From contig JAHDCD010000004.1 in the NCBI GenBank assembly GCA_020630095.1, positions 13,580 through 77,579 of the forward strand: a DNA stretch of 64,000 nucleotides, written 5' to 3'. Both the position numbers and the translations under genes were made by a program. Of this stretch, positions 1,380-40,419 are shown one piece after another; positions within the stretch are counted from its first letter, which is position 1, and each line of letters opens with the position of its first letter. The DNA comes from Rickettsiales bacterium (GTDB taxonomy: Bacteria > Pseudomonadota > Alphaproteobacteria > Rickettsiales > UBA8987). The notes below the pieces were generated by a model. The model saw only the letters and a program-made list of their open reading frames with translations. It ran no database searches and had not been told where the DNA came from.

Positions 1380-4300
1380 GCTTGAAGGGAAATTACTTCT
1401 AGGTTATCCCATCCGATAGAGTTTACCTTCTCAATTGAAGCAACAATTTCACGTGCGCCAGTTGCGGTAGTTGTATAAGGAATCTTTTCAATAAGCGTAT
1501 TACGACGGATAGAGAAACTATCTTGTAACGCCTGCTCACCTTCAGTTGTGTTGATAACAAGGTCAACTTTACCTTCCTTAATTGCATCTACAATATGCGG
1601 ACTACCTTCAAGCACTTTATTAATTTGAGCAGCTTTAATGCCGTTAGTATTTAAGTGCTTTGCCGTACCTTCAGTTGCGGTAATATTAAAGCCCATATTG
1701 GCGAATTTTTGTGCGATAGGTAGAATGTCTTCCTTATCCTTGTTGCGTACAGAAATAAATACATTACCTGAAAGTGGTAATTTATTCCCCGTACCAAGCT
1801 GCCCCTTGTAAAAGGCGATTTCAAAGTCGGCATCGTAACCCATAGCTTCGCCAGTAGATTTCATTTCTGGGCCAAGTACTACGTCAACATCCGCGAAACG
1901 GCTGAATGGGAATACAACTTCTTTTACCGCGAATAACTGCTTAGCTTTACCTTGAGTTAAAGCTTTGATATCTTTTAGCTTTTTGCCAGCCATAACTTTT
2001 GCGGCAATTTTAGCGACAGGCACGCCAGTTGCTTTTGCAACGAATGGCACTGTACGCGATGCGCGTGGGTTAACCTCTAACACGTAAATTGTACCTTCCT
2101 GAGAAACCGCGAATTGTACGTTCATTAAACCGATAATCCCAAGCTCTTTAGCCATTTGCGTAGCTTGAGTTTTAAGCTCATCAATTTTAGCATCCGAAAG
2201 TGAATATGGCGGTATAGAACAGGCTGAATCGCCAGAGTGAACACCAGCTTCTTCAATATGCTCCATTACACCTGCGATAAAAATATCATCACCATCAGAT
2301 ATAACATCAACGTCAACTTCTGTGGCTTTATTTAAGAATCTATCAAGTAATAGAGGACCATGTTCAAAACAGTTGGGGAATTGGATTAGGTATTTAGCAA
2401 AACCCTCTGTATTATCTACAATTGCCATTGCCTGACCGCCAAGTACAAATGACGGACGAACAACCACAGGGAAACCAATTTCTTCAATTTTAACTTTCGC
2501 TTCTTCTGGAGTATTAGCAATAGCGTTTTCAGGCTGTTTTAAATCTAACTTCTCTAGAAGCTTTTTAAACAAATCTCTATCTTCCGCGTCATCAATTACT
2601 TTGGCAGATGTACCAAGTAACGGGAAGTTATTTTCGTGTAATTTGTTAGCTAGTTTTAACGGAGTTTGCCCGCCGAACTGCATATTAACACCTTTTACCT
2701 TACCGGCAGTTTGCTCTTTATAGATAATTTCAGAAACATCTTCATAAGTAATAGGCTCGAAATATAGGCGGTCGGAAGTATCGTAATCAGTTGATACAGT
2801 TTCAGGGTTACAGTTAACCATTATGCTCTCGTAGCCGTCTTCCTTGGCAGCGAAAAGTGCGTGAACGCAAGCATAGTCAAATTCGATACCCTGCCCGATT
2901 CTATTAGGGCCAGAGCCTAGAACGATTATTTTCTCCTCATCAGAAACACCTGCTTCGCAGTCTGGTTCATTTACACCGTCACCAGCGTAAGTTGAATACA
3001 TATAAGGTGTAATTGCAGCGAACTCGCCTGCGCATGAATCTATGCGTTTGAATACTGGGCGAACATCTAGTGAGTGACGAAGTGCACGGATTTCATCTTC
3101 AGTTTTACCCGCAAGCTCTGCAAGGCGCGCATCCGAGAAGCCTTTTTTCTTAACCGCAAGCATGCCGAATTTATCTTCTGGAATGCCCTGCTCTTTAATA
3201 TCTAGCTCGTAAGAAACGATTTCTTCAATTTGGTCTAAAAACCATTGATCCCATTCCGTTAATTCTTGGATTTTCTTTAATGTATAACCGCGGCGCATAG
3301 CTTCGGCTATGTACATAATACGTTTTGGGGTACGTTTTGCCAGTTCCGCATCAAGGTCTGCTGTTGCTATTGCAGCTTTATCATTTAAGCCTGAAACACC
3401 AGTTTCAAGTGAGCGTAATGCTTTTTGTAAGCTTTCTGCAAAGTTTGAGCCGATAGCCATAACTTCACCAACGGATTTCATTGCAGATGTTAAAATAGGC
3501 TCAGCGCCGGCGAATTTTTCAAATGTGAAGCGTGGTATTTTAGTTACAACGTAATCAATTGAAGGCTCAAATGATGCTGGCGTACAGCCAGTACAGTCAT
3601 TTGTAATTTCATCTAGCGTATAGCCAATCGCTAGTTTTGCGGCAACTTTAGCTATCGGGTAACCTGTCGCTTTAGATGCAAGCGCGGATGAACGGCTTAC
3701 GCGTGGATTCATTTCAATAACGACCATTTTGCCATTTTCAGGATTAACGCCGAATTGTACGTTTGAACCACCAGTTTCAACACCGATTTCGCGCAGTACA
3801 GCAATAGATGCGTTACGCATGCGCTGATATTCTTTATCCGTTAATGTTAGCGCAGGGGCAACTGTTATAGAGTCCCCCGTATGTACACCCATAGGGTCTA
3901 CGTTTTCAATGGCGCAAATAATAATGCAGTTATCAGCTTTATCGCGGACAACTTCCATTTCATACTCCTTCCAGCCAAGAAGTGATTCATCAATAAGCAC
4001 TTGATTAGTTGGTGAAGCATCTAAGCCTGAAGCTACGATTGCTTTAAATTCTTCCATTGTGTTAGCAATACCACCACCTGTACCACCTAGGGTAAATGAT
4101 GGGCGGATAATTGCCGGCAAGCCTGCAGTTTTAATGAACTCTAGTGCGTCATCAATATTATCAACAACAGTATTAGCGGGCACGTTTAAGCCGATTTTTG
4201 CCATAGCCTCGTTGAAGCGGGCGCGGTTTTCAGCTTTATCTATAGAGTCTGGCTGAACACCGATAAGCGATACGTTATGTTTTTCTAAAATGCCAAGCTC

Positions 4301-4609
4301 GTGAAGTTCAAGTGCGCAGTTTAATGCCGTTTGACCACCCATTGTAGGCAGTAAAACATCCGGCTTTTCTTTAGCGATAATTTTTTCAACAAACTCTGGA
4401 GTGATAGGCTCAATATAAGTCGCGTCCGCCATGTTGGGGTCGGTCATAATTGTAGCAGGGTTGGAGTTTACCAGAATTACGCGATACCCTTCTTCCTTCA
4501 ATGCCTTACAAGCTTGAGCGCCGGAATAGTCAAATTCGCATGCTTGACCTATAATGATAGGGCCAGCGCCGATAATTAATATTGATTTTATATCTGTTCT
4601 TTTTGGCAT
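1376..4609 (-). CDS. carB: carbamoyl-phosphate synthase large subunit
   Basis: The ~1077 aa product has duplicated ATP-grasp halves and the [31 protein letters not shown]-terminus. The start was moved to the MPKRTD methionine at 4609; the track start at 4645 adds 12 unlikely residues. Confidence 0.97.
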
Positions 4610-4700
4610 AGTATTAGCAGATGAGCATATAAGAAGGTTAAGCATATTAGAAGCCCAACTTCTTATCTGCTTATATGCTTATTCCTCTTATATGCTAAAT
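4610..4700 (-). repeat. ~90 bp palindromic leader element directly upstream of the carB start; first 42 nt shared with the lipA leader
   Basis: The minus strand reads ATTTAGCATATAAGAGGAATAAGCATATAAGCAGATAAGAAGTtgggCTTCTAATATGCTTAACCTTCTTATATGCTcatctgctaatactATG. The two arms are inverted copies of each other. Confidence 0.7.
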
Positions 4701-4774
4701 TTAGGCAAAACTTTGAGAGTACTACAAAATGAAGGCAATTAATCAAGGGGAAAATTGGAGAATTATAAGATTTT

Positions 4775-5020
4775 TTAGCCTAAGAAGATTTTAAGCATAG
4801 CAAACATACCGCCCAATATAGCAAATGCCATGATATACATTTTGTTAGTAAGCTTATATTCAAGAACTTGTAAAGAGTTCTCAAGGTCAGATTTTGTAGC
4901 AACACCATCGCCAATATCAGTAATTACTTCAACAACTTGCTGGGCTTGCTTTTTGGTAAAGCTCTTATTCTTCATAAGATGTTCTATAGCTTGATGTGTA
5001 TCTATAATTTGTGCTACCAT
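4775..5020 (-). CDS. small C-terminally membrane-anchored coiled-coil protein (DUF1640/CCDC90-like)
   Basis: The sequence MVAQIIDTHQAIEHLMKNKSFTKKQAQQVVEVI...ATKSDLENSL with a C-terminal TM helix resembles DUF1640 proteins. The start was set at 5020 to avoid overlap with dcd. Confidence 0.5.
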   Translation of the reverse strand: MVAQIIDTHQAIEHLMKNKSFTKKQAQQVVEVITDIGDGVATKSDLENSLQVLEYKLTNKMYIMAFAILGGMFAMLKIFLG

Positions 5021-5057
5021 GCCTTTAATATATAATATAAATCTATAAAAATCAAGG

Positions 5058-5621
5058 TTATACCTTTGGAAGGGTAACACCTTTTTGTTGCATATATTTA
5101 CCAGCTTTATCTGCGTATGAGGTTTCGCATGGTTGATCGCCCTTTAAGAATAAGAACTGACACACACCTTCATTAGCATAAATTTTGGCAGGAAGTGGCG
5201 TAGTATTTGAGAACTCTAGAGTTACATGACCTTCCCAATCTGGCTCAAGCGGGGTAACATTTACAATTATACCACAACGCGCATATGTAGACTTACCTAA
5301 ACAGATAGTTAAAACGTCACGCGGGATTTTAAAATATTCCGTAGTGCGAGCAAGTGCAAAGCTATTTGGTGGAATAATGCAAACGTCGCCCTTGAAATCT
5401 ACAAAACTATTTTCGGAAAAGTTTTTAGGGTCAACAGTTGCAGAGTGAACATTGGTGAAAATTTTAAACTCGTCAGCAACGCGGGCATCGTACCCGTAAG
5501 ATGACAAACCATACGATACTATTTTATTGCCATCGACCTCGCGGATATTGCCATCAACAAATGGTTCAATCATTGAGTGGTTTTGGGCTAAATCTCTTAT
5601 TGCTATATCGCTTAGTATCAT
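5058..5621 (-). CDS. dcd: dCTP deaminase
   Basis: 187 aa. [11 protein letters not shown]...EPF...SYGYD...[23 protein letters not shown] is the typical Dcd pattern. Confidence 0.93.
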
Positions 5622-5623
5622 CT

Positions 5624-5652
5624 TTTGTTTGTGTTTGTGTTTGTGTTTGTGT
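5624..5652. repeat. hexanucleotide microsatellite (TTTGTG)n, about 4.5 units, starting 3 nt upstream of the dcd start codon
   Basis: Read directly as tttgTTTGTGTTTGTGTTTGTGTTTGTGtag. On the dcd strand this is (CACAAA)n sitting where an RBS would be. Confidence 0.9.
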
Positions 5653-5670
5653 AGGTATCAAACTAAATTT

Positions 5671-5739
5671 TGTCATTCCCGCGCAGGCGGGAATCTCATA
5701 CAAATTCAGAGGAGATCCCCGATCAAGTCGGGGATGACA
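5671..5739. repeat. ~70 bp palindromic (MITE/RPE-like) element with TGTCAT...ATGACA termini
   Basis: The sequence is tgtcattcccgcgcaggcgggaatc...gatccccgatcaagtcggggatgaca. Each arm is itself a hairpin. A second copy in opposite orientation lies at 29521-29592. Confidence 0.8.
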
Positions 5740-6829: not shown

Positions 6830-7987
6830 ATGATTTACTTAGATTACAATGCAACCTGCCCTATATTGCCTGAAGTTAAACAGACTATGTTAAGTGCTAT
6901 GGATAGACCTTATAATGCATCTTCTGTGCATGCCTTGGGGCGCGAGGCGAAGAATATTATATCCAAAGCTAAAGATAATATTCGCGGTAAGCTTGGTAGT
7001 GAATCTGCTGAGATAATATTTACTGGAACATCTACTGAAGCATCTAACTTAGCGTTAAAAGGATTAGATAAAGTTAAAACCATTATAACTACCGAAGTTG
7101 AGCATAGCGCAGTACTTAATACTGTAAAATCATTTTATCATTGCGAGAAACAAAGTGACGAAGCAATCCAGAAATCTACCCAAGCGAATAAATCACTGGA
7201 TCGCTTCGCTAATGCTCGCGATGACAGGATATATATAATTCAAGTTGATTCAAATGGTATAACTAAACTAGATGAATTAGATAAAGCCTTGAGTAAGGCG
7301 GAAAGCCCTGCTTTGGTTAGCGTGCAATTAGCTAATAGTGAAACTGGAGTAATTCAGCCTATTAAAGAAGTAGTTAAAATTGCGCTTAAATATGGCGCGT
7401 ACATCCATTCTGATGCTACTGCGGCACTAGGTAAGGTTAATATAAACTTTGATGAGTTAGGCGTGGATATGATATCCGTAGCAGCGCATAAAATTGGTGG
7501 CCCACAAGGTGTTGGCGCACTTATCCATAAGAAGGGATTACATTTTAATGCGTTAATTCAAGGTGGCGGACAACAAGGTGGCTATAGAAGTGGCACAGAA
7601 AATATAGCTGGAATTGTTGGCTTTGCTAAAGCATGCGAGCTTATTGAAACTAAAGCATATAACAATATTTCTATATTGCGTGATGAGTTACAGTACACAT
7701 TAGAAACTAAGGGCTGGCAGGTATTTGGTAAAGAGTCTGAGCGCCTATGCAACACCTTGCTTGTTTCTGATGGTAAAACGCCCGCAGAAACCCAGCTTAT
7801 TAAAGCAGACTTAGCGGGCATTTGTATATCTGCAGGTTCGGCATGCTCAAGCGGTAAAGTTACTGAAAGTTATGTATTAAAGGCAATGGGAATAGATAAA
7901 ATAATAGCCGAAGGTGCTATTCGCCTTTCCTTAGGGGTTAATACTACAAAAAATGAAATTAAAACCTTTTTAACCAAGTTAACTTAA
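6830..7987 (+). CDS. cysteine desulfurase (NifS/IscS-type class V aminotransferase) carrying an in-frame palindromic-element insertion
   Basis: Contains the PLP-lysine context SVAAHKIGGPQGVGAL, the catalytic Cys loop SAGSACSSG and the N-terminus MIYLDYNATCP. Confidence 0.85.
   Translation: MIYLDYNATCPILPEVKQTMLSAMDRPYNASSVHALGREAKNIISKAKDNIRGKLGSESAEIIFTGTSTEASNLALKGLDKVKTIITTEVEHSAVLNTVKSFYHCEKQSDEAIQKSTQANKSLDRFANARDDRIYIIQVDSNGITKLDELDKALSKAESPALVSVQLANSETGVIQPIKEVVKIALKYGAYIHSDATAALGKVNINFDELGVDMISVAAHKIGGPQGVGALIHKKGLHFNALIQGGGQQGGYRSGTENIAGIVGFAKACELIETKAYNNISILRDELQYTLETKGWQVFGKESERLCNTLLVSDGKTPAETQLIKADLAGICISAGSACSSGKVTESYVLKAMGIDKIIAEGAIRLSLGVNTTKNEIKTFLTKLT
7139..7225. repeat. RPE-like palindromic element inserted in-frame in the cysteine desulfurase gene
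   Basis: CATTGCGAG..ACGAAGCAATCCAG...CTGGATCGCTTCG..CTCGCGATG has two nested inverted repeats with one mismatch each. It is translated as HCEKQSDEAIQKSTQANKSLDRFANARDDR. Confidence 0.75.
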
Positions 7988-8010
7988 TATTAACCTATCT
8001 GTTGTAATAT
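7979..8010 (+). promoter_or_regulatory. CtrA-type box TTAAC-N6-TTAAC + N10 + TAATAT, 7 nt before the ATG at 8018
   Basis: Reads gTTAACttaataTTAACctatctgttgTAATATttgaattATG. Confidence 0.55.
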
Positions 8011-8017
8011 TTGAATT

Positions 8018-8572
8018 ATGGCAAAGGATACTACAGATAAAAAAGGGTTCTTTATACGTTTATTTACAGCAATTGGGCTAGCTTCTGTGTTACCTTTTAT
8101 TGGAAAAAAAGATGAGGCGGGAATTGATGGCATTTTACAGCCTGATGGTAGCATTACTCATCCAAAAAGTGGAGAAGTAATTAGATTAAATAACTATCTA
8201 GAAAATTATTTTGGAGTTGAACCTGAAAGTAAAAAAGAAACACCCATTACTGAGGATCAGCCAGCATTACCTTTGGAAATGAAAGAAATCATTGAAGCTC
8301 GCCCTAGAGGACGAGGTGATATTGTACCAATCCACCCTAAACAAAAAACTGAACCTGACGCTGCACCTAGTTATTGGGATGAAAAAAATTGGAAAAAACC
8401 TGATGAAAATCCTGCTCCTGAAGAATTATCTCCACCACAAGAAGATGAGCAAAAGGAAGAAAGAAGAAGGCCCAGAGGAAGGGAACCACATGCGCTTGAA
8501 GCAGAATTTCAGATGGCTGAAGCTCCTCAAAGTGAAGCTAGCGCACAAGTAACTGAAAATGAGCTAAGTTAA
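8018..8572 (+). CDS. hypothetical protein with N-terminal TM helix and a Pro/Glu-rich acidic tail (184 aa)
   Basis: ORF with the conserved promoter architecture. The hydrophobic segment is FFIRLFTAIGLASVLPFIG. No known motif. Confidence 0.55.
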   Translation: MAKDTTDKKGFFIRLFTAIGLASVLPFIGKKDEAGIDGILQPDGSITHPKSGEVIRLNNYLENYFGVEPESKKETPITEDQPALPLEMKEIIEARPRGRGDIVPIHPKQKTEPDAAPSYWDEKNWKKPDENPAPEELSPPQEDEQKEERRRPRGREPHALEAEFQMAEAPQSEASAQVTENELS

Positions 8573-8577
8573 TTATG

Positions 8578-8609
8578 TTAACTTTAAATTAACCTTTTGA
8601 AGATAAAAT
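8578..8609 (+). promoter_or_regulatory. CtrA-type box TTAAC-N6-TTAAC + N10 + TAAAAT, 6 nt before the ATG at 8616
   Basis: Reads gTTAACtttaaaTTAACcttttgaagaTAAAATttaactATG. Confidence 0.55.
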
Positions 8610-8615
8610 TTAACT

Positions 8616-9197
8616 ATGAATAGTCTATTTAAATTTACCCTTGGTATTTCATCTTTAATCTTTTCCAGCTCATTAACCCCTTTAAGCGCGCAGGAAATAT
8701 TTAAAGATCCAAATGCCCCTATAGAGAGAAAAGAACGATTTTTTACTGAACTAGTACCTAAAAGATTAAGTGCAGAAAGCTCCCAAAAAGAAGGGGATCA
8801 AAGATGGGGAGAGCTTTTTGGTAAATTAGAGTGGGATAACGCTGAAGGAAAAAGAATACCAGCTGATGACGATAGCATAATTCCTCCATTAATGCCAGAA
8901 GAGCTACCTACTATGTCAGAAATATTACAACATGACCCCTCCTTAAAAAATGGCTTTGAGGGCTTAGGAGAAAGCGTTGAAGTTGACTTAAGCAGACCTG
9001 AATCGAATTATGAACCGGATGATTCTGTTAAAAAATCAAACTCTAACAAACCTAATGTTATAAGAGTATTTTCAAAAGAAGATTTTAAAGAAATATTAAA
9101 TAGCCCTAGCGCACCTTCGCAAAAGCATAAACCTCATAAACCAATTACAGTTGGGAGCGCTGATGTGCAATCAAAAGGTTCGGAACTTGGTGGTTAA
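8616..9197 (+). CDS. hypothetical secreted protein (signal-peptide-like N-terminus, 193 aa)
   Basis: MNSLFKFTLGISSLIFSSSLTPLSAQE looks like a Sec signal peptide. The gene has the conserved promoter architecture. Confidence 0.55.
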   Translation: MNSLFKFTLGISSLIFSSSLTPLSAQEIFKDPNAPIERKERFFTELVPKRLSAESSQKEGDQRWGELFGKLEWDNAEGKRIPADDDSIIPPLMPEELPTMSEILQHDPSLKNGFEGLGESVEVDLSRPESNYEPDDSVKKSNSNKPNVIRVFSKEDFKEILNSPSAPSQKHKPHKPITVGSADVQSKGSELGG

Positions 9198-10180
9198 CTT
9201 GTCATTTCTAGCATTTTATTTAATGGCTTAGCGGCCGCCTCAATAAGTTCTGGAGTCATTGTTAGCTCTGGCGTTTCATTAGCTAGGCATAAATATAACT
9301 TCTCTAACGTATTCATTTTCATGAAGGGGCAATTGTTACAGCTCGTACACCCCTCCATTGTACCGCCAACTGTTATAAGTTCAGACTCTGGCGAGCGTTT
9401 CTGCATTTCGTGCAAAATACCTGGTTCGGTAAGAACAATAAATTGCTTACCTTTACCACCATGTTTTTCAACATACTGAATTAGCTTAATAGTAGAGCCG
9501 ATATATTCCGAATGATCTAGTAGAGGTTTAGGGCATTCTGGGTGAGCAATAACAACGGCATCCGGATTACGAGTTTTAAGTTTAACTAATTCTTTTTCGT
9601 TAAATTGCTCATGCACTATGCAAGTGCCCTCCCACATAATCATGTCGCGCCCTGTTTTGCGTGATAACCAACCACCTAAATATTTATCCGGCGAGAATAG
9701 AATTGGTTTATCTTTAGGGATTTGTTCAACAATTTGTTCAGCGCATGAAGATGTTACGATAATGTCCGATGCGGCTTTAACATCCGCTGAGCAATTAATA
9801 TAAGTAAGGGCAACATGTTCGCCAACTTCCTTATTCAGCTTTTCGCGGTATGCTTTGAATTTATCAATCGGGGCGGAAAGTTCTAGTGAACAGCCCGCAT
9901 CCATATCCGGCAGGACTACTTTAGTATTTGGAGAGAGGATTTTAGCCGTTTCAGCCATGAATTTAACACCGCAGAATACTATTAAATCAGCGTCAGCATC
10001 TTTAGCTTTGCGTGATAAATCCAGCGAATCACCTACGAAGTCTGCGATATCCTGAATTTCGGAATCTTGATAGAAATGCGCTAGAATAATGGCATTTTTT
10101 TCTTTCTTTAATTTGAGAATTTCTTCTTCAATATTAAACGATGGATCAGCAAATATTTTTTCTGTAACTTTCATGCTCAC
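9194..10180 (-). CDS. nadA: quinolinate synthase
   Basis: 328 aa. Contains ILAHFYQDSEIQDIADFVGDSL, three-domain NadA-like repeats, and conserved Cys in CIVHEQF and CTSCNNCPFM. Confidence 0.9.
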   Translation of the reverse strand: MSMKVTEKIFADPSFNIEEEILKLKKEKNAIILAHFYQDSEIQDIADFVGDSLDLSRKAKDADADLIVFCGVKFMAETAKILSPNTKVVLPDMDAGCSLELSAPIDKFKAYREKLNKEVGEHVALTYINCSADVKAASDIIVTSSCAEQIVEQIPKDKPILFSPDKYLGGWLSRKTGRDMIMWEGTCIVHEQFNEKELVKLKTRNPDAVVIAHPECPKPLLDHSEYIGSTIKLIQYVEKHGGKGKQFIVLTEPGILHEMQKRSPESELITVGGTMEGCTSCNNCPFMKMNTLEKLYLCLANETPELTMTPELIEAAAKPLNKMLEMTS

Positions 10181-10241
10181 ATTTATTTATATAGTAATAC
10201 GGCAATGTATTACAAGCTATTCGCAGTAATTTTAATAAAAA

Positions 10242-10273
10242 TTAACTAAAGTTTAAGAACTGAATAATATAAT
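10242..10273 (+). promoter_or_regulatory. CtrA-type box TTAAC-N6-TTAAG + N10 + TATAAT, 6 nt before ATT at 10280
   Basis: Reads aTTAACtaaagtTTAAGaactgaataaTATAATtttataATT. The layout is the same as the two downstream paralogue promoters. Confidence 0.5.
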
Positions 10274-10279
10274 TTTATA

Positions 10280-10963
10280 ATTACTGATAATAATAAAAAT
10301 ATACTCGGGCATAATATACCACCAAGTAAAAACGATAAAGAGGCAAGAGAGCTTTGGCGCTTTGGGGTTTCTTATCTTATAAAATCTATTTTACCTGAGA
10401 AAAAGCCCACACAGGCGGTTATAGCAGAAGACCTCGGGATTCCTTTATCAAAATATAGGCACTTACTTAGAGGGTATGGCGATACACCACAATTATTAGA
10501 TAAATTATTAGATAACTTTAATGTACCAGACAATGAGAGGCTTGAATTTTACAATAACTGTAATGAACTGGGTATTGTTACCAGTCAAAGCCTCTATAAA
10601 CAAGGTGCCTCAAGCTTAGGAGATTGCTTAAAGAAGATTAGACTGAAAGCCGGTTTGACTCAAGAAGAGCTTAGCGATGCATTGGATGTCGAAAGAGTTT
10701 TTCATAGCCATGTTGAAAGTGGTTATGAAGTTTATGACGCAACAACAACTGGCAAGCTTTTAGATTTTTGTAACGCAAGTGAGCTAGATAGGACCTTTAC
10801 TGAACAGCTTAGATCTGGAGATGTTGGATTTCAAAGAAACTCAGGAAAAAAACACCTTCCTAGTGATGCACAAATTAAAGCCGTAGAAATAGGCGCTGCA
10901 ATTGTTGAATCAATAGAGTATTTAGCCAATGAGTTAGATGCCCTACCCTCTAAAGAAAGGTAG
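10280..10963 (+). CDS. short multi-HTH protein, third member of the tandem family; no canonical start codon (ATT at the conserved start position), possibly a pseudogene
   Basis: The frame is open from 10268. The first ATG/GTG/TTG in frame is the TTG at 10655 (track ORF 10655-10963). The upstream part encodes HTH-like KPTQAVIAEDLGIPLSKYRHLLRG and LKKIRLKAGLTQEELSDAL. Confidence 0.45.
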   Translation: MTDNNKNILGHNIPPSKNDKEARELWRFGVSYLIKSILPEKKPTQAVIAEDLGIPLSKYRHLLRGYGDTPQLLDKLLDNFNVPDNERLEFYNNCNELGIVTSQSLYKQGASSLGDCLKKIRLKAGLTQEELSDALDVERVFHSHVESGYEVYDATTTGKLLDFCNASELDRTFTEQLRSGDVGFQRNSGKKHLPSDAQIKAVEIGAAIVESIEYLANELDALPSKER

Positions 10964-10992
10964 TTAAGTATCTATAGATAATTTAATAAAAA

Positions 10993-11024
10993 TTAACCAA
11001 ATCTTAAGAAATATGCTTTAAAAT
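10993..11024 (+). promoter_or_regulatory. CtrA-type box TTAAC-N6-TTAAG + N10 + TAAAAT, 6 nt before the ATG at 11031
   Basis: Reads aTTAACcaaatcTTAAGaaatatgcttTAAAATacccatATG. It is nearly identical to 13214-13251. Confidence 0.6.
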
Positions 11025-11030
11025 ACCCAT

Positions 11031-13208
11031 ATGGGACAAGATACAACATACGGCGGCCTATCCTTTGAAGAATATACCAATGGTTATGGAAGGGATAGCG
11101 GTCGAAAAATAGGGGCTGCTGGATTACCATTTGAATTTTCTGTATCTGGCTTTTTAAATCACTGGCTAGATTTAGAAGAAACCTCTGCAAGTGAGTTTTA
11201 TGCAATTCATAAACTGTCTGACTTTGAGGTGGATTATTCAGATTTTGAAAAATTAATATCTCCACCATCAAGAGAGAATGGCAGTTATTCGCTAGGTGAT
11301 AATTTACATATATATCTACAATCTGCATTACCTAAAAGTATGAAAGAGCATTCTTGGGCTTTAAGATATTCATCTCAGAAAGAAATTGATGCGATAGGAG
11401 CAGAGATTGTAGAGGCAGATATTAGCATTTTTGAACAAATTACAAAGGCTGATCCAAGAACTATATTAGCCCCTTATATAAAGCCAGCTGAAAGAGTTAA
11501 TGCACAGAATTACCCTTCTGAATTTTTAACAAAATTATTAAAAACCTTAAGAAAAGCTAATGATTTACAGGGCTCTTTGGGAGGAAGCTTTCCATTTGAA
11601 GAGATTGAATTCTTCAGAAAGGTAGATGATTTCTATCAGTTTCTTACTAAAGGCACAATCCCTGAAAAAAAAATGCTAAGTCTACTTGAATCAACGTATG
11701 ATTTAACAGACTCAGATATCAACTTTATTTCAGATGCTCTTACGGAGGCTGAGACTCAAGGCTATCCGAAAGATTTCTTTTCAAAAGAAATCGACAAAAT
11801 TATAGATCAGGTAAAAAATCAAGAGCAAGGCGAGGTTTTACAACTTAGCGATTATGAATTAATGAATAAATTTGCTAGAATAGTTGATGCTCCTATAGAA
11901 TGTTTATACGGGCTAAGGCCCTTAACATACTCTGATAAAACAAGGCAAATTAGTGCTATATGCGAAAAAATATCATCTTTTGCAGGTGAAGAGTTAGCGA
12001 ACTTAGCTGAAGAGCATTTTCAAAGTATTGAAGGCATTGATATTGAAAGACTCATTGAAATTAAAGAGGAATCTGGAGTTACAGGTAGAAAGCTACTTGG
12101 TTATGCGCTTAGTTTAATTCGGTTGTCTGAAGGGATGACTCAGGCTGAACTTGGCGATAAGGCTGACTTAAGGCCGCAGAAAGTTTCCTCTATGGAAATA
12201 CATACTAGAACCAGTATAAAAAATAGCTCAACTAGAGCGCAAAAACCCTCTCAGATAGAAGCATATCTTGACGGGTGTAATACTGATAAAAAGTTTAGAG
12301 GCATAATAGAAAGAATATGTAAAAAATATGATATTGATACAGTTAAAAACTTAACTGATAGAATTTATAAAACAGATAATGTGAATGAAGCCGTATATTT
12401 ACTTACAAAATTATATGAAACTTCACTGACAGCTATTGATAGGAAAGCCCGTAAACTAGACCCTGATTGTATTACATATGTTAAAATAAAAAACAAAAAA
12501 ACTCAATTAAAGCCTAAAGAAGTTAGACTTACATTAGGTATATTAGAAGTTAAAGCTGAACATAGGCAGCATTTTGAGGGGCTTATAAACCTTACTAATT
12601 TACTTGAGGCAGAAACTGAACTTGGCAGCGCTTTGAGAATAGTTAGAGAAAGTTACGACTTAACTACCACTGATATTAAAAATCGCCTAGGTGTTACTAG
12701 ACAGGCGGTCAATAATGCTGAAATAAAAGGCTGTAAGGCATCTACTGCAATGAATTATCTAAACGCTTGTGGGGCTACTAGAGATGTACGCTATATGGTT
12801 GCCGTTACAAGTGAGCATGCCGAATTTATACCAGAATTACTATATGAGGTAGTTAACAGGGTCTCAATTGACATAATGGATACTGATAATAACTTATCTG
12901 CTAGAGCTATAGTGGCTGATAATATGGGTATAAGCGTAAAAGAATTTAATAGCATACTATCCTACGAAACAAAACCCAATAAAACTGAAATTAGGGAGTT
13001 GTGCAAGTTAACTAGAGATAATTTAGCCAATTACCTTACCGATAAAGATTCAACCTATTTAGAAAATTCAATTGATAAAACTCGTACAAATAAAATAACA
13101 AAATCTGGAGCGTATAAGGAGCGCACCATTAGGCACCCTTCTGTAAATACTAAAGCGGATCATTGGCGGACTCTTAGCGGTCCTACTAAAATGTCTAAAA
13201 TTACTTAA
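11031..13208 (+). CDS. large multi-HTH (XRE-like repeat) protein, paralogue A (725 aa)
   Basis: At least three HTH-like modules: GRKLLGYALSLIRLSEGMTQAELG, LRIVRESYDLTTTDIKNRLGVTRQAVNNAE and ARAIVADNMGISVKEFNSIL. It shares blocks with 13252-15450. Confidence 0.7.
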   Translation: MGQDTTYGGLSFEEYTNGYGRDSGRKIGAAGLPFEFSVSGFLNHWLDLEETSASEFYAIHKLSDFEVDYSDFEKLISPPSRENGSYSLGDNLHIYLQSALPKSMKEHSWALRYSSQKEIDAIGAEIVEADISIFEQITKADPRTILAPYIKPAERVNAQNYPSEFLTKLLKTLRKANDLQGSLGGSFPFEEIEFFRKVDDFYQFLTKGTIPEKKMLSLLESTYDLTDSDINFISDALTEAETQGYPKDFFSKEIDKIIDQVKNQEQGEVLQLSDYELMNKFARIVDAPIECLYGLRPLTYSDKTRQISAICEKISSFAGEELANLAEEHFQSIEGIDIERLIEIKEESGVTGRKLLGYALSLIRLSEGMTQAELGDKADLRPQKVSSMEIHTRTSIKNSSTRAQKPSQIEAYLDGCNTDKKFRGIIERICKKYDIDTVKNLTDRIYKTDNVNEAVYLLTKLYETSLTAIDRKARKLDPDCITYVKIKNKKTQLKPKEVRLTLGILEVKAEHRQHFEGLINLTNLLEAETELGSALRIVRESYDLTTTDIKNRLGVTRQAVNNAEIKGCKASTAMNYLNACGATRDVRYMVAVTSEHAEFIPELLYEVVNRVSIDIMDTDNNLSARAIVADNMGISVKEFNSILSYETKPNKTEIRELCKLTRDNLANYLTDKDSTYLENSIDKTRTNKITKSGAYKERTIRHPSVNTKADHWRTLSGPTKMSKIT

Positions 13209-13213
13209 TAAAA

Positions 13214-13245
13214 TTAACCAAACCTTAAGAAATATGCTTTAAAAT
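13214..13245 (+). promoter_or_regulatory. CtrA-type box TTAAC-N6-TTAAG + N10 + TAAAAT, 6 nt before the ATG at 13252
   Basis: Reads aTTAACcaaaccTTAAGaaatatgcttTAAAATacccatATG. Confidence 0.6.
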
Positions 13246-13251
13246 ACCCAT

Positions 13252-15450
13252 ATGGGACACGGGCCTAAATATGGAGGATTATCATTTGATGATTATACCA
13301 ATGGTTATGGAAGGGATAGCGGTCGAAAAATAGGGGCTGCTGGATTACCATTTGAATTTTCTGTATCTGGCTTTTTAAAATATTGGCTTGAACAAGAAGA
13401 AATATCCGTAAAAGATTTCTATACGGGGCATAAATTATCTAACTTTGGGGTTGATTATCAAAGTTTTAAAAGTTTAGTTTATCCCCCCTCAGCAGATAAA
13501 GGTGAATTTGCACTAGGCGAAAAGTTGCGAGTATATATACAGTCTATTTTACCTAAAAAGATGGCAAATTACGTTTGGGTTTTAAGACACTCTGCTTATA
13601 ATGAAAATAGCTCAGGTATGGCACAGGTGGTTGAGGCTAAAATAGAAATATTAGACTCCATTGTAAAAAAAGATCCTAAAGATTTAAAAGCTCCAAACTT
13701 AAAATCTGCAAAAAGAATCTCTACTAAAAATTACCCATCAGAGTTTTTATCAAAATTATTGGAAGCCTTAAGAAAGGCTAATCATATGCAAGGCTCAATA
13801 GGTGATATTTTTCCATTTGAGGAAGTTGAGTTTTATAGAAAAATAGATGATTTATATCAATTCTTAACTCAAGGGTCAATATCAGCCGATCAAATGCTAG
13901 ATTTTCTTGAAGCTGACCATACACTTTTAGATTCTGATATATTATTTATATCTAAAGCTTTAGTTGAAGCTGAAAAGCAAGGCTATCCAACAGATTTCTT
14001 TAGCAAGTCTATCGATGTGGTAATAGAGCGTGAAAAGAGTAAAGAGTGCGGTGGTACAGCTAAGCAGTATAGTGATTATGAATTAATGAGTAAATTTGCA
14101 AAGCTAGTAAACTGCCCATTAGAAAGCCTTTATGGGTTAAAGCCCCTTACTCAAGTTAGAATCACTGAACAAATTAACCATATTTGTGAAAGAATAGCAA
14201 CTTTTGCCGACCCCAAATTAGCCGTTTTGGCAAAATCACATTTTGAATCAATAGAAGGTATTGATATTCCTCGCTTAGTTGAAATTAAAGAGGAATCTGG
14301 AGTTACAGGTAGAAAGCTTCTTGGCTATGCGTTGAGCTTGATAAGATTATCAGAGGGGGTGAGTCAAACGGATGTTAGTGCAAAGATGGGAGTAAGTCAA
14401 AGAGCTGTTAGTGCCATGGAGTACTTTGAAAGCTTTAGGGTTAGTGGTGTTCATAGAAAAAATCAAAAACCGTCAGAAATAGAAAATTACTTAGATGCGT
14501 GTGATGCTGATAAAAGTGCTAGGAAAACCATTGATAGAATTTGCAAAAAATATGACATCGATACAGTACAAAAGCTAGAAGGCAATTTTAATGCCTCTAA
14601 AACAACTTTAGAAGCCATTGTTAATTTAATAAAATTACATGAAGTTCCTTTTAAAGTTCTGGGAAGGGAAATTAAACAAAAAGGATTAAAGTGTGAGGCT
14701 TCAGTTGAATTTTTAAAAAAAAAATCTCAACCACTGACTGAGTCTGATACAAAGATAATAATGGACACTCTTGGTGCAACTGCAGAAGAAAGAGAAATAG
14801 TCGAGGGTGTAATTCAAGAAAATAGCATGACAGCCTTACTTCAAAATGCAACTCATAGCGGTGAGGCACTAAAGATAGTGCGAGAAGGACTTGATTTAAC
14901 CGGTGAACAACTTGCTAAATTATGTGGCATTTCTAGGCGAACTATACAAAACCAAGAAGCTACTCCAGAAGTTAGCTCTATAAATATAATTAAGAGACTT
15001 AATGTATGCGAAGTTTCTCCAGAAGTTAGATATTATGTAGCCTTAGCAAGCTCTAGAGTTGAGTTACTACCTGAAATACTTTATGAGGTAGTTAACAGGG
15101 TCTCAATTGACATAATGGATACTGATAATAACTTATCTGCTAGAGCTATAGTGGCTGATAATATGGGTATAAGCGTAAAAGAATTTAATAGCATACTATC
15201 CTACGAAACAAAACCCAATAAAACTGAAATTAGGGAGTTGTGCAATCTTGTAAAAGAGTCTTTATCTGCTCATTTAACTGAAAGAGAAGTTGTATTTATA
15301 GATTCTTCTTTAGACGCTCTATACATAGATACTTTAAAGAAAGATGGCACGAGAAGAGAAAGAAAGATATCCATTCCCTCACCAGCTGCTAAAGCGGATC
15401 ATTGGGAAAACTTATCATGCCCTGTAAATATTAATTATTTGGGTGAATAA
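13252..15450 (+). CDS. large multi-HTH (XRE-like repeat) protein, paralogue B (732 aa)
   Basis: Collinear with paralogue A and carrying nucleotide-identical blocks. HTH-like modules include LIRLSEGVSQTDVSAKMGVSQRAVSAME and LKIVREGLDLTGEQLAKLCGISRRTIQNQE. Confidence 0.7.
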   Translation: MGHGPKYGGLSFDDYTNGYGRDSGRKIGAAGLPFEFSVSGFLKYWLEQEEISVKDFYTGHKLSNFGVDYQSFKSLVYPPSADKGEFALGEKLRVYIQSILPKKMANYVWVLRHSAYNENSSGMAQVVEAKIEILDSIVKKDPKDLKAPNLKSAKRISTKNYPSEFLSKLLEALRKANHMQGSIGDIFPFEEVEFYRKIDDLYQFLTQGSISADQMLDFLEADHTLLDSDILFISKALVEAEKQGYPTDFFSKSIDVVIEREKSKECGGTAKQYSDYELMSKFAKLVNCPLESLYGLKPLTQVRITEQINHICERIATFADPKLAVLAKSHFESIEGIDIPRLVEIKEESGVTGRKLLGYALSLIRLSEGVSQTDVSAKMGVSQRAVSAMEYFESFRVSGVHRKNQKPSEIENYLDACDADKSARKTIDRICKKYDIDTVQKLEGNFNASKTTLEAIVNLIKLHEVPFKVLGREIKQKGLKCEASVEFLKKKSQPLTESDTKIIMDTLGATAEEREIVEGVIQENSMTALLQNATHSGEALKIVREGLDLTGEQLAKLCGISRRTIQNQEATPEVSSINIIKRLNVCEVSPEVRYYVALASSRVELLPEILYEVVNRVSIDIMDTDNNLSARAIVADNMGISVKEFNSILSYETKPNKTEIRELCNLVKESLSAHLTEREVVFIDSSLDALYIDTLKKDGTRRERKISIPSPAAKADHWENLSCPVNINYLGE

Positions 15451-15560
15451 AGACTTTACAAGGTCAAAGCCTGCCTTATTCTCAACTATTGTTTAATGGT
15501 TTCGCTGGCGCGAAACATACACTTACTTCGCAGTGCAAAATTAGCTCAAGCTAATTTTGA

Positions 15561-18038
<2,478 letters not shown>

Positions 18039-23364: not shown

Positions 23365-23964
23365 ATGCTAGGTAAGCGTTTAATAAAAGTGGCTATGATT
23401 GCCATGTTGTCAATTTCTTTGAGTTCGTGTTATTTAATCACGACCTCTAAACCCTCAAACATAGATCATATATGTACGATATTTAAGGAGCGTCCGCATT
23501 GGCAACGCGCAGTATTTAAGGCATCTAATCGCTGGAATGTGCCTGTGCCGATGATAATGTCTATCATTTATCAAGAAAGTTCGTTTAGGCGCTACGCACA
23601 GCCTACTCAATATTTATTGCTTGGTAGTATTCCTATGCTTGGCTCGTCTGGCGCGCTAGGCTTTTCTCAGGCGATTGGTATAACGTGGAAGGAATATGTT
23701 TCTGAAACTTCAAATGACTTTGCAATGCGTACATCTTTTGATGATTCAGTAGATTTCATTGGGTGGTACGTTGATAAATCTGCTAGGCTAATAGATATTG
23801 CACGTACTGATGCGTTTGGTCATTACCTTGCTTACCACGAAGGACGTACAGGCTATAAGCGTAAAACTTATAATTCAAAGTCTAAGAAATGGCTGTTAGG
23901 CGCAGCTAAAAAAGTGCGCAACAGAACTGCAAACTATAAAAAACAATTATTGGATTGTTATTAA
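23365..23964 (+). CDS. lipoprotein with SLT/transglycosylase-like motif
   Basis: The signal peptide has a lipobox (LSLSSC). SIIYQESSFRRYA resembles the SLT catalytic ES motif. Confidence 0.5.
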   Translation: MLGKRLIKVAMIAMLSISLSSCYLITTSKPSNIDHICTIFKERPHWQRAVFKASNRWNVPVPMIMSIIYQESSFRRYAQPTQYLLLGSIPMLGSSGALGFSQAIGITWKEYVSETSNDFAMRTSFDDSVDFIGWYVDKSARLIDIARTDAFGHYLAYHEGRTGYKRKTYNSKSKKWLLGAAKKVRNRTANYKKQLLDCY

Positions 23965-23992
23965 CTTTCTATTAACCTTATTAGACTAGAAT
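23961..23992 (+). promoter_or_regulatory. CtrA-type box TTAAC-N6-TTAAC + N10 + TAGAAT, 9 nt before the ATG at 24002
   Basis: Reads TTAACtttctaTTAACcttattagacTAGAATcataaatatATG. Confidence 0.55.
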
Positions 23993-25996: not shown

Positions 25997-26028
25997 TTAA
26001 CTTTATATTAACACCAAGCTTATATTAT
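25997..26028 (+). promoter_or_regulatory. CtrA-type box TTAAC-N6-TTAAC + N10 + TATTAT, 7 nt before the ATG at 26036
   Basis: Reads gTTAACtttataTTAACaccaagcttaTATTATatagctaATG. Confidence 0.55.
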
Positions 26029-30010: not shown

Positions 30011-31522
30011 TTGGGATCTCATGAAAATTCTATATTTGAGAAAATGGACTTTAATTTACTTTTAAAAGGCTTGGTAAAAAAGGATTTTCCTACGTTTATG
30101 AGGAAGTGCTTTTCTACCGTTAACCCAGGGATTAGGTATCAGCATAATTGGCATTTAGATTTAATTGCCGAATATTTAGATGCCATAGATAAGGGGCAGA
30201 TTAAGCGCCTGATAATTAATATTCCACCACGTTATTTGAAATCATTCACTTGCAATGTGACCTACCCTGCTTGGGTGCTAGCGAATAATCCTACAAAGCG
30301 AGTTATATCTGTTTCGTATAGCCAAGCTCTTAGCTTAAAACATTCTATTGATTCGCGCGCGCTAGTTGAAAGTAAATGGTTTAAGCAATGTTTTAAAGAT
30401 TGTGCGCTGTTGGCGGATCAGAATGAAAAACATAAGTTTATGACCGAACAGCGCGGCTTCCGCTTTGCGACATCTGTTGGTGGCACGCTTACCGGCGAAG
30501 GTGGAGATTTAATTATTATAGATGACCCGCAGAACCCGATTAACATCCATAATCATGCGTATCGTGAGCATAGTATGGAATGGTTTTCCACTGTGCTTTC
30601 CAGCCGTTTAGATGATAAGAAAAACGGCGCAATGTTACTTGTTATGCAACGTTTGCATGAGGAGGATTTAACAGGAAAACTACTTAAACGCGGTGGCTGG
30701 GAGCATTTATCTATCTCCGCTCTGAATGAAAATGAAATTACTTATTATAGTTTTAAACAAATAAAAGCAAAAGAGTCGAATAAAGAATCTGTTATAGCTA
30801 TAACAGATTTTATTGATAATAATCTATTTAATTCAATAAGATCTGAATATTTAAGAAAGCCTAATTCTCCTTTACATTTTACACGTGAAGGATTTGATGA
30901 GTTGGATCAAATAAAGGCCGATTTGGGTGATCATGCATTTGCCGCGCAATATTTACAAAATCCTGCCCCCGCTAAAGATGGTATGGTTAGGCGCGATTGG
31001 CTATGTTATATATCTGAACCCTCTGAAGCGCCTGAGCAGATAATTTATTCATGGGATACGGCAATTAAAACTGCATCGCATAATGATTATACAGTTTGCA
31101 CGCGCTGGAAGACTTATAAGAATTTCTATTTCTTGGATAATTTATATCGCGGTAAATTGGAATACCCTGAACTGCTTAATTTAATTGATGAATTTAGTGC
31201 AGATGCTGATGTGGTATTGCTAGAGGATAAAGCCTCTGGGCAGTCTTTAATTCAAGACTTACGGAAGAATAGTAATCATCCTGTAATTGCCATTACCCCA
31301 CATAAAGATAAATTAACGCGCTTTGCGGCAACAACTCCGCTATTTGAGGCGAGTAAAGTAAAGATTAATCAGGATAGAGATTGGCGCATAGATTTAGAGC
31401 GTGAATTGCTAACATTTCCGAACTCAAAACACGATGACCAAGTAGATTCAATTAGCCAGTTTTTAAACTATATGAAAAATAGAAAGATAGAAATTTCTAA
31501 GCCCAACTTACGGAGGTTTTAA
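30011..31522 (+). CDS. phage terminase large subunit-like protein (orphan)
   Basis: Contains a Walker A-like IINIPPRYLKS, a Walker B DLIIIDDPQNP, and C-terminal RNaseH-like nuclease Asp motifs (YSWDTA, KHDDQVDS). The start may be the TTG at 30011 or the ATG at 30044. Confidence 0.8.
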   Translation: MGSHENSIFEKMDFNLLLKGLVKKDFPTFMRKCFSTVNPGIRYQHNWHLDLIAEYLDAIDKGQIKRLIINIPPRYLKSFTCNVTYPAWVLANNPTKRVISVSYSQALSLKHSIDSRALVESKWFKQCFKDCALLADQNEKHKFMTEQRGFRFATSVGGTLTGEGGDLIIIDDPQNPINIHNHAYREHSMEWFSTVLSSRLDDKKNGAMLLVMQRLHEEDLTGKLLKRGGWEHLSISALNENEITYYSFKQIKAKESNKESVIAITDFIDNNLFNSIRSEYLRKPNSPLHFTREGFDELDQIKADLGDHAFAAQYLQNPAPAKDGMVRRDWLCYISEPSEAPEQIIYSWDTAIKTASHNDYTVCTRWKTYKNFYFLDNLYRGKLEYPELLNLIDEFSADADVVLLEDKASGQSLIQDLRKNSNHPVIAITPHKDKLTRFAATTPLFEASKVKINQDRDWRIDLERELLTFPNSKHDDQVDSISQFLNYMKNRKIEISKPNLRRF

Positions 31523-36497: not shown

Positions 36498-36573
36498 GAT
36501 CTCGTAGCTCAGTCGGTAGAGCAACTGACTTTTAATCAGTGGGTCGGGAGTTCGAGCCTCCCCGAGATCACCA
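36498..36573 (+). tRNA. tRNA-Lys (anticodon UUU)
   Basis: Cloverleaf read by hand. The acceptor GATCTCG pairs with CGAGATC. The D arm is GCTCAGTCGGTAGAGC, the anticodon loop is CTTTTAA, and the T arm is GGGAG-TTCGAGC-CTCCC. The discriminator is A and CCA is encoded. Confidence 0.93.
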
Positions 36574-36781
36574 ATCATTTCAATGACTTATCACGACCCA
36601 CTGCTCTAATTAACTTCCCAAAATCAACTCTAATAGGCACCGAATAGGCACGGTAAGTAAAAACTATGAGTATCATGGCACTAAAAGTAGCAACTCATGG
36701 TTTATTTTTTTCTATCTATATTTTAATGAATCTAACTAGTTTATCTTGTTTTTAAACTGGGTAATTATAACCTAATCAGCT

Positions 36782-37132
36782 ATGATAGACACTTACGAAA
36801 AAGCCTCTGCTCAAATGCTAGCTGCACTATGTGTCCGTAATACATTTCTTGAAGATTTGCATTCTGGAACCGTTCCAACTTCAAAAACTGGAGATTATTC
36901 AGACATTACTGTTAAAACTCCTTATGGTGAAATACCATGGAATGAAGTTTCACGTTTAAATGACGATGAAATGAAAATACTAATGAAAGAAGTTGTTAGT
37001 AAGCTTTACACCTTTTTTCAAAATCAAAATGATGATGATTTTATGGACGGCTTTGTAAATACAGCAATGAGATATATTGAGCATTGGGATGAGCCCAAAA
37101 TTGATAGTAGATTATTGTCTTTTAAGAATTAA
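36782..37132 (+). CDS. hypothetical protein (116 aa)
   Basis: ORF only. Confidence 0.4.
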   Translation: MIDTYEKASAQMLAALCVRNTFLEDLHSGTVPTSKTGDYSDITVKTPYGEIPWNEVSRLNDDEMKILMKEVVSKLYTFFQNQNDDDFMDGFVNTAMRYIEHWDEPKIDSRLLSFKN

Positions 37133-37224
37133 AGACATTTTCGGTCGTTTTATTTGCAAACTTGCAAATTCATTCTTGATTAATTTATATCAAGATGTCA
37201 GAATTTAAATTGGTGTAAATTACT

Positions 37225-39885: not shown

Positions 39886-40419
39886 ATGAAGTGGAAGGAC
39901 TTACATACCTTAGGTTATGATCAATCAGGAAATATTAATATACCAGCCTTGCAGGATTCTTTACCTGATACGCCACTAGAAGTTCATGAAGATTTACTTT
40001 CTGGCTTTGGTAAAAACGATGATTTCCTTGAGTTATACGGTGATATTGACTTATCAAAAATTAAGTGGGAGAAGCATAAATTGAGAGCAAAAGAGCTTGT
40101 TGAATGTAGCTACTATAATAAATACTCCGACTGGCTTGAAGGTATGTCAGAGAGAATGGATAATTATAGCACTTTAGGATGGGATTGTTTACATCACACC
40201 GAAAAAGTTATGAATTATTGGAAAAACAATTCAACTTGGTATAGAAGACCCATCTTCTTTGATTTTGATCCTAGCAGTATATCTCAAGAAAAATGCCTTA
40301 GACTTTTAGAGGGGCATACTCGAATAGGTATTTTAAAGGGTGCATTAAAAAACAATATCTTAGACAAAAATAGTGAGCATGAAATATGGCTAGGTAAACT
40401 ACTGGGAGGACATAATTAA
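39886..40419 (+). CDS. small protein of unknown function (177 aa), possible ParB/Srx-like LLEGHTR motif
   Basis: The start abuts the methyltransferase stop (TAAATG). LRLLEGHTRIGIL faintly resembles the DGHHR motif of ParB-like domains. Confidence 0.45.
   Translation: MKWKDLHTLGYDQSGNINIPALQDSLPDTPLEVHEDLLSGFGKNDDFLELYGDIDLSKIKWEKHKLRAKELVECSYYNKYSDWLEGMSERMDNYSTLGWDCLHHTEKVMNYWKNNSTWYRRPIFFDFDPSSISQEKCLRLLEGHTRIGILKGALKNNILDKNSEHEIWLGKLLGGHN

Follow-up and report, generated by a model that had tools for sequence, protein, structure and literature searches.

A tandem pair of large XRE-type helix–turn–helix genes with nucleotide-identical blocks, best explained by short-tract gene conversion, in a Rickettsiales bacterium

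Identical blocks in a diverged tandem pair

The stretch of DNA analysed here comprises 64,000 nucleotides (nt) of a contig from a Rickettsiales bacterium (JAHDCD010000004.1), and we refer to the whole of it, at its full length, as the window. It holds three tightly spaced plus-strand frames, C, A and B, flanked by nadA (9194-10180, minus strand) and gyrB (15603-18038); A and B encode proteins of more than 700 amino acids (aa) with helix–turn–helix (HTH) modules of the XRE type. The three open reading frames (ORFs) are as follows.

10268/10280-10966, plus strand: ORF C, 228 codons open from ATT 10280
11031-13208, plus strand: gene A, 725 aa, predicted to be all-helical
13252-15450, plus strand: gene B, 732 aa

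The long ORFs of A and B (725 and 732 codons) sit in DNA of 35% GC, lie in direct orientation with a tandem register of 2.22–2.24 kb, and can be aligned over their whole length with only four small gaps (identity 53% for amino acids, 62% for nucleotides); no intrinsic terminator was found between them. An earlier reading of the letters without database searches (the sequence-only reading) had described A and B as collinear but diverged tandem genes that share identical blocks, and the pairwise alignment bears this out. The blocks, given as the coordinates in A followed by those in B, are listed below.

10989-11036 and 13210-13257, plus strand: promoter block, 48 nt with 1 mismatch
11073-11158 and 13294-13379, plus strand: block 1, 86 nt with 0 mismatches, aa 15-43, encoding YTNGYGRDSGRKIGAAGLPFEFSVSGFL
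12055-12094 and 14279-14318, plus strand: block 2, an exact run of 40 nt, aa 342-355
12843-13006 and 15082-15245, plus strand: block 3, exact over 164 nt, aa 605-658

Direct comparison of the pairs picked out by the sequence-only reading returned 1 mismatch in 44 nt for the promoter and first codons (10993-11036 versus 13214-13257) and 0 mismatches for the 86-nt pair (11073-11158 versus 13294-13379), the 164-nt pair (12843-13006 versus 15082-15245) and the 38-nt pair (12057-12094 versus 14281-14318), the exact run of the last being in reality 40 nt long; the block translations that it gave are correct. Allowing for a few differences, block 3 stretches to 178 nt at 98.3% identity (BLASTN; 12829-13006 in A). 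Within the window, blastn and tblastn detected no other occurrences of the blocks and no further copies or fragments of A or B.

Outside the blocks the proportion of differing synonymous sites (pS) is 0.71 and that of nonsynonymous sites (pN) 0.36 by the Nei-Gojobori method, with a synonymous divergence (dS) of about 2.2, which is saturated; the low pN relative to pS points to purifying selection on A and B. Inside the blocks the same method finds differences at 0 of 61 synonymous sites. Where A and B share an amino acid they use the same codon at 134 of 283 positions outside the blocks (47%) and at all 92 of 92 inside. The alignment thus returns silent-site identity in the tracts and saturation elsewhere, and no uniform divergence. 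An intermediate pS (0.44–0.58) over codons 41–120 suggests older conversion events.

Chance does not account for these runs. In a site permutation of the GENECONV type (2000 runs) the longest exact run never exceeded 32 nt as against the 164 nt observed, so that the tracts are significantly longer than the pairwise divergence predicts. A stricter simulation, in which only synonymous codon identity was resampled while the aligned amino acids stayed as observed, was run for 5000 trials; the longest run averaged 19 nt with a maximum of 41, the probability of a longest run of at least 40 nt was 0.0004, and runs of 86 or 164 nt were reached in 0 of the 5000 trials. Because the codon-aware simulation almost never generates such runs, all three coding blocks are significant.

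Nor does conservation of the protein by itself account for the blocks. The 26-residue peptide EIKEESGVTGRKLLGYALSLIRLSEG is the same in A and B; its first 13 codons match at every nucleotide, and the rest contain 12 synonymous differences. Conservation of the protein is thus not enough by itself to fix the DNA sequence at this locus. In the 36 nt that lie between the promoter block and block 1 (codons 3–14) there are 13 differences, including 5/5 synonymous in the conserved YGGLS. Residues 15-43, 331-360 and 601-660 are 90–100% identical between A and B. Measured against the single homologue found outside this genome (P0005, described below), the blocks are 21–38% identical in all, and values of 31–38% compared to 25% overall place them among the better-conserved parts; however, more than 60% of block residues differ from P0005, the blocks are not invariant at the level of the family, and amino-acid constraint alone therefore cannot explain their identity. 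Two further candidates were rejected: an RNA element, since neither strand of the blocks has a folding signal (positive z-scores of +0.1 to +1.4), and GC-biased conversion, since block GC is the same as gene GC.

Promoter layout, protein architecture and genomic setting

The promoter block of A and B is made up of a box, TTAACCAAA(T/C)CTTAA (of the form TTAA-N7-TTAA), followed by TAAAAT at +26 to +31 and an ATG at +38. A box of the same form precedes ORF C, and each of the three (at 10242, 10993 and 13214) has a -10-like hexamer at +26 to +31.

10993-11007, plus strand: box of promoter A; -10 element TAAAAT at 11019-11024, ATG at 11031
13214-13228, plus strand: box of promoter B; -10 element at 13240-13245, ATG at 13252
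10242-10256, plus strand: box of ORF C (TTAA-N7-TTAA); perfect TATAAT at 10268-10273 (+26 to +31 from the box)

The box of B begins 5 nt after the stop codon of A, the -10 element of both genes ends 6 nt before the ATG, and upstream of either ATG no Shine-Dalgarno sequence is visible on reading the sequence. The full CtrA motif of Caulobacter has its 5' base near -35, or at -39 in the case of the CtrA-activated ctrA P2 promoter (PMC4287350). With the box and -10 element placed as they are here, transcription would start at or beside the ATG, and a leaderless messenger RNA (mRNA) is predicted; leaderless mRNA under CtrA activation is a coherent reading of this layout. The sequence-only reading had proposed CtrA-type leaderless promoters, and as a prediction the proposal stands, as the geometry fits and is repeated at five more ORFs of the window.

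1365-1379: box of the ORF with ATG at 1340, minus strand
7979-7993: box of the ORF with ATG at 8018
8578-8592: box of the ORF with ATG at 8616
23961-23975: box of the ORF with ATG at 24002
25997-26011: box of the ORF with ATG at 26036

The window has 16 TTAA-N7-TTAA boxes compared to 9.7 expected, and a box-to-ATG spacing of 38–41 nt occurs at seven ORFs, A and B included, compared to 0.12 expected (Poisson P = 5e-11); a TAnAAT-like -10 element occupies +26 to +31 in the box-driven ORFs. The five others have no Pfam family, and homology between them and A or B was rejected by BLASTP. Judged by sequence, the seven may be leaderless orphan genes that form a CtrA-type regulon peculiar to this lineage.

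ORF C shares the promoter motif, but the codon 38 nt from its box is an in-frame ATT (10280) and not the ATG of A and B. No ATG, GTG or TTG start precedes TTG 10655 in this frame, and the public annotation gives only a 102-aa product from that TTG. One clear XRE HTH is encoded at about 10616-10786 (HTH_31, 42.5 bits against a cut-off of 27). ORF C had been taken for a short third copy (10242-10963) of the tandem genes, and whereas the shared promoter motif is there, copy status and collinearity are not: the resemblance comes down to an upstream stretch of 29 nt (10231-10259) that is 90% identical to 10982-11010 and to a weak BLASTP match with A through a 28%-identical HTH segment (E = 8e-5), with nothing significant against B. 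To judge by its frame, ORF C would be either an ATT-initiated gene or a recent pseudogene that has lost its start.

Two XRE modules in each of A and B were identified by Pfam, NCBIfam and a custom profile calibrated with shuffled decoys.

12117-12197, plus strand: HTH1 of gene A, aa 363-389
12618-12722, plus strand: HTH2 of gene A, aa 530-564
14341-14424, plus strand: HTH1 of gene B, aa 364-391
14860-15000, plus strand: HTH2 of gene B, about aa 537-583

Both modules of both proteins score at or above the gathering threshold in Pfam (HTH_3 and HTH_31), which places HTH2 of B at aa 537-569. Membership of the XRE superfamily is marginal for A (23.9 bits in HTH_3, where the cut-off is 23) and clear by score for B (HTH_3, 40.6 against 23; HTH_31, 35.2 against 27). 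HTH1 and HTH2 match each other in hhalign with 94% probability, and there is no other convincing internal repeat. A short repeat, YP(S/K)(E/D)F(L/F)(T/S)K, occurs in gene A at aa 161-168 and 245-252 (nt 11511-11534 and 11763-11786); this motif is kept in A, B and P0005, with an hhalign probability of 72% over 16 columns. Three or more XRE modules per protein had been proposed, and this count is not upheld, because Pfam, hhalign and the custom profile give the third segment no support. That candidate, located in the 164-nt block, is HTH-like by eye and was rejected on profile evidence: the custom profile scores -2.4, which is decoy level, at aa 629-651 of A and 635-657 of B, hhalign of HTH1 or HTH2 against segment 595-670 yields about 1% probability or less, and segment-wise Pfam scans of A and B detected no further HTH.

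The HTH regions are among the most diverged parts of the pair, with A–B identity of 47% around HTH1 and 23% around HTH2. From their sequences A and B are most likely sequence-specific DNA-binding regulators, and they appear to be paralogues with common modules and different DNA-reading heads. The approximately 600 other residues of each protein are predicted to be all-helical and belong to no recognisable family. Searches of Pfam, NCBIfam, PHROGs, PADLOC, PDB sequences and Foldseek returned nothing for A or B beyond the generic XRE HTH, in agreement with the earlier statement that the family has no name; the Foldseek matches (PDB and BFVD) are all to single HTH domains with E > 0.01 and comprise C.Esp1396I, C.BclI, Stl, DdrO and phage CI-like proteins.

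Beyond this genome the family is essentially an orphan by sequence. An exhaustive HMMER profile search over 1.84 billion cluster-representative proteins retrieved one true relative, P0005 (644 aa, E = 3.7e-19, 25% identity, on an NCBI contig of 118,628 nt), which is collinear with the N-terminal region of A and with its centre to C-terminus, together with three unrelated tandem-XRE repeat proteins (P0006, P0007 and P0008) that match through the HTH alone. Homologous-protein searches with A and with a three-sequence profile returned A itself only, and tblastn of A against 50,697 phage and 72,556 plasmid records gave no match; in these collections A and B are thus not a well-described phage- or transposon-encoded regulator, the case that the sequence-only reading had named against itself. 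Protein B was masked from the search by a database clustering artefact: its representative at 90% clustering is an unrelated 47-aa JGI peptide (P0003).

The surroundings are those of an ordinary chromosome, with carB, holB, cysteine desulfurase, nadA, gyrB, lipA, mraY, trpD and metG in the window. No other sequence is more than 68% identical to GyrB, whose top named matches are metagenome-assembled genomes (MAGs) labelled Rickettsiales bacterium or Alphaproteobacteria bacterium. In the two closest retrievable relatives (L001 and L002) recF is followed by gyrB, with no A/B-like gene there; gyrB in the present genome has no recF upstream, unlike L001 and L002. A 40-nt palindrome of A and T only (15560-15599), with an 18-bp stem and a fold z-score of -3.7, stops 3 nt short of the gyrB start codon. 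Further along, a structural cluster resembling the Rhodobacter capsulatus gene transfer agent (RcGTA) occupies 47403-63985 on the minus strand (GTA_TIM, Rcc01698_C, DUF2460, BR0599, DUF2793, tape measure and tail tube), and a lone large-terminase gene lies about 16 kb away from it at 30011-31522 (plus strand); clusters of this kind are typical of Alphaproteobacteria and fit an alphaproteobacterial host. A low-GC island (31–33%) follows tRNA-Lys(UUU) at 36498-44778 and contains genes for an MmeI-family restriction-modification enzyme (37225-39885), a DEAD/ResIII helicase (41704-43626) and a T5orf172 protein (43630-44778), as well as two orphan ORFs; it is probably an integrated defence island. 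The minimum of the cumulative GC skew lies near 4 kb (window about 4000-5700), gene orientation flips at 5621/5670 between a dCTP deaminase-like gene on the minus strand and holB on the plus strand, and seven of the TTAA-N7-TTAA boxes fall within 7959-13228. Together the skew minimum, the orientation switch and the cluster of boxes may indicate a nearby replication origin.

Gene conversion and its rivals

Repeated short-tract gene conversion between A and B is the best and simplest explanation of the identical blocks, as the sequence-only reading had supposed and as the permutation test, the synonymous counts and the codon-aware simulation indicate. The sequence of events that we envisage is the following. 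A and B would be real, expressed tandem duplicates in a deep-branching, low-GC alphaproteobacterium, and their duplication would be old because synonymous sites are saturated. Later, short patches (the promoter and codons 15–43, 342–355 and 605–658) would have been copied between the two genes by homologous recombination. The patches fall in better-conserved parts of the protein, where enough identity may be left over to seed recombination, and conversion there would as a consequence sustain itself. The HTH modules outside the patches diverged, such that A and B probably read different DNA sites, and the N-terminal and C-terminal modules may have been kept identical, for instance for a shared partner or for co-assembly. 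Each gene would have its own promoter, from which transcription starting at or next to the ATG would yield a leaderless mRNA, presumably upon activation by the cell-cycle and developmental regulator CtrA, as the geometry suggests. Taken as a whole, the reading of A and B as real tandem XRE-HTH genes subject to short-tract conversion and driven by predicted CtrA-type leaderless promoters is in our estimation probable, with appreciable room for error.

Several observations weigh against this account. The conversion argument draws on the A–B pair and on the protein sequence of P0005; patterns back-translated from the peptides found no related loci for an orthologue comparison in GTDB genomes, metagenomes or viral contigs. 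The promoter block and block 1 are separated by just 36 nt with 13 differences, and this diverged gap calls for an unusual course of events, either two separate, very short tracts or patchy heteroduplex repair. That the proteins bind DNA, that their genes depend on CtrA and that the transcripts are leaderless are predictions. The HTH modules are barely detectable in P0005 with the custom profile, and the AlphaFold2 models, built on a 3-sequence alignment, are poor (pLDDT, the model confidence score, 50 for the full protein and 45 for the N-terminal 350 aa), which leaves most of the protein without a fold assignment. As for the promoters, gyrB, too, has no Shine-Dalgarno sequence, which may be a general trait of the genome; of the ORFs scanned in the window, none looked like a ctrA-type response regulator.

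The patchy 5' end is also an argument for an explanation without any recombination, in which selection at the nucleotide level holds the blocks identical as operators, small RNA targets, internal or antisense promoters or leaderless-translation signals. Identical, diverged and again identical sequence within 170 nt fits a single conversion tract poorly, the promoter block is non-coding and plausibly functional, and where block 3 begins, each of the two copies gives a sigma-70-like match on the minus strand in a consensus scan (12867-12839 and 15106-15078). That scan is, however, at chance level overall (25 matches compared to 21 expected); perfect identity over 164 and 86 nt far exceeds the need of any known binding site or small RNA target; no thermodynamic structure signal is present on either strand; and the other CtrA-type promoters in the window have the box and -10 element in common but not the spacer bases. 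We consider such selection distinctly improbable. Still less credence is due to a programmed or contingency system, in which the blocks would serve as crossover points that shuffle variable modules, HTHs included, between genes or silent cassettes, or that resize the array, much as surface-protein families of the Rickettsiales vary by segmental gene conversion. The arrangement itself is suggestive, given that identical blocks flank strongly diverged segments in a direct tandem with a register of 2.22–2.24 kb and that the HTH recognition regions lie in the most diverged segments, but two copies yield very little combinatorial diversity, the window contains no further copies or fragments, no additional paralogue of this genome turned up in the protein collections, the adjacent genes include no recombinase, and A and B are without signal peptide or surface features. 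An assembly artefact, that is, chimeric or collapsed paralogues or strains in a MAG, is the least credible of all and we regard it as very nearly dismissed. The genome is a multi-contig draft (the contig measures 158,780 nt) of a rarely sampled lineage and a 164-nt exact repeat is near short-read length; against this, assemblers break or collapse at repeats and do not create exact identity within 60%-identical sequence, both frames are intact across every block boundary, and the four separate blocks are all in perfect register.

A different kind of alternative accepts the conversion and disputes the function: the proteins might be stage-specific structural or secreted products, such as nucleoid scaffolds or effectors directed to a host nucleus, with HTH-like helices, and not transcription factors. 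About 80% of each protein is non-HTH, the HTH modules are degenerate in the sole homologue P0005, each of the seven ORFs that carry such a promoter is a lineage-specific orphan, and the closest GyrB relatives are labelled as Rickettsiales MAGs. XRE modules above the Pfam cut-offs nonetheless most simply imply DNA binding, and neither a secretion signal nor an effector domain was detected in A or B. The segment moreover encodes broad biosynthesis (carB, trpD, nadA and lipA), and an obligate intracellular lifestyle is accordingly not indicated. We judge this alternative unlikely, although it is the strongest of those weighed here.

Short-tract conversion between two regulator genes thus being the reading that we prefer, what is seen at this locus is a known mechanism in an unusually sharp form, in a near-orphan and architecturally new protein pair. 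It does not overturn current understanding and will be of moderate interest to specialists. Its value lies in being an unusually clean natural case of very short-tract conversion (40–164 nt) inside paralogues that are saturated at silent sites, a case which shows which protein modules remain recombinationally coupled after duplication. Two XRE HTHs joined to approximately 600 residues without a known fold open up unexplored regulator space in an uncultured alphaproteobacterial lineage, and the strict geometry of box, -10 element and ATG, which five more orphan ORFs share, marks out a candidate CtrA regulon of leaderless genes specific to the lineage. A bolder proposal, which seems to us a little less likely even than the structural alternative, would make A and B, with ORF C, the founders of an undescribed class of giant, CtrA-timed, leaderless XRE proteins, whose identical modules co-assemble or dock while the diverged HTHs address different targets. 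Were it true, the pair could act as a heteromeric multi-site chromosome organiser or as a developmental master regulator, possibly with control over the co-resident gene transfer agent (GTA) cluster or, if the organism is a symbiont, with an action on host DNA.

Comparison with known systems

A and B resemble the XRE/Cro-C1 factors (PF01381 HTH_3 and PF13560 HTH_31; HipB, C.Esp1396I, C.BclI, 434 Cro) through two modules that match HipB and C-protein. Members of that family typically measure 70–150 aa and combine one HTH with a small oligomerisation or sensor domain, whereas A and B run to some 730 aa, of which the N-terminal region of 350 aa and the long stretches between and after the HTHs match nothing. 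With the tandem-repeat XRE metagenome proteins P0006–P0008 (3–7 matched stretches) they share the presence of several XRE modules per polypeptide; those proteins are regular arrays of near-identical modules of about 70–90 aa that match A and B through a single HTH (E = 1e-6 to 7e-5), and A and B, in contrast, are not repeat arrays. Several named classes were considered and rejected. Type II antitoxins (HipB/Y4mF/HigA-like) match in NCBIfam at 22.8–36.7 bits against cut-offs of 72–79 and through the HTH only, and A and B have nadA and gyrB beside them but no toxin gene. For RNPP regulators, Pfam gives no tetratricopeptide repeat (TPR) family and the HTH modules are internal and not N-terminal; the sole TPR signal consists of noise matches to designed TPR proteins (E = 0.14–0.27). 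As regards phage or plasmid repressors (CI/Cro and C proteins), there are no homologues in phage or plasmid records, the PHROG and BFVD matches cover the HTH only, and no integrase is present in the chromosomal context of A and B.

The mosaic itself has precedents in the concerted evolution of tufA/tufB and of ribosomal RNA operons, where non-reciprocal transfer of the RecA type keeps stretches of paralogues identical at synonymous sites. In these classical cases whole genes are about 99% identical; A and B, unlike tufA/tufB, are identical in four patches of 40–164 nt only and saturated at silent sites elsewhere. The msp2/p44 genes of Anaplasma, which encode outer-membrane antigens, combine one expression site with many silent, promoter-less cassettes, and like A and B they have conserved nucleotide blocks that flank diverged segments in an alphaproteobacterial multigene family. 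A and B differ from them in that both are full-length with their own promoters and HTHs of the cytoplasmic type, with no cassettes in the window; an antigenic or phase-variation cassette system was rejected since blastn and tblastn reveal no silent donors in the window and no recombinase is adjacent.

The promoters follow the full-motif CtrA promoters of Caulobacter (PMC4287350) in placing TTAA-N7-TTAA at a comparable upstream position, here 38–41 nt before the ATG; the fixed spacing between box and ATG, which would imply leaderless transcripts, is unlike Caulobacter and, as read from sequence alone, a local feature. The conceptually nearest biology is that of the XRE paralogues RtrA, RtrB, CdxA, CdxB and TgrL of Caulobacter and phage phiCbK, which form heteromers, act on a common gene set and repress the GTA activator gafYZ (PMC10688885). 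Here, too, we see XRE paralogues in an alphaproteobacterium, in a window that also carries an RcGTA-like cluster, and a link between A/B and GTA control may be entertained as speculation. The members of the Caulobacter/phiCbK cluster are small proteins, and the likeness to A and B, of which A has no phage or plasmid relative, is one of description: a radiation of XRE paralogues within the Alphaproteobacteria.

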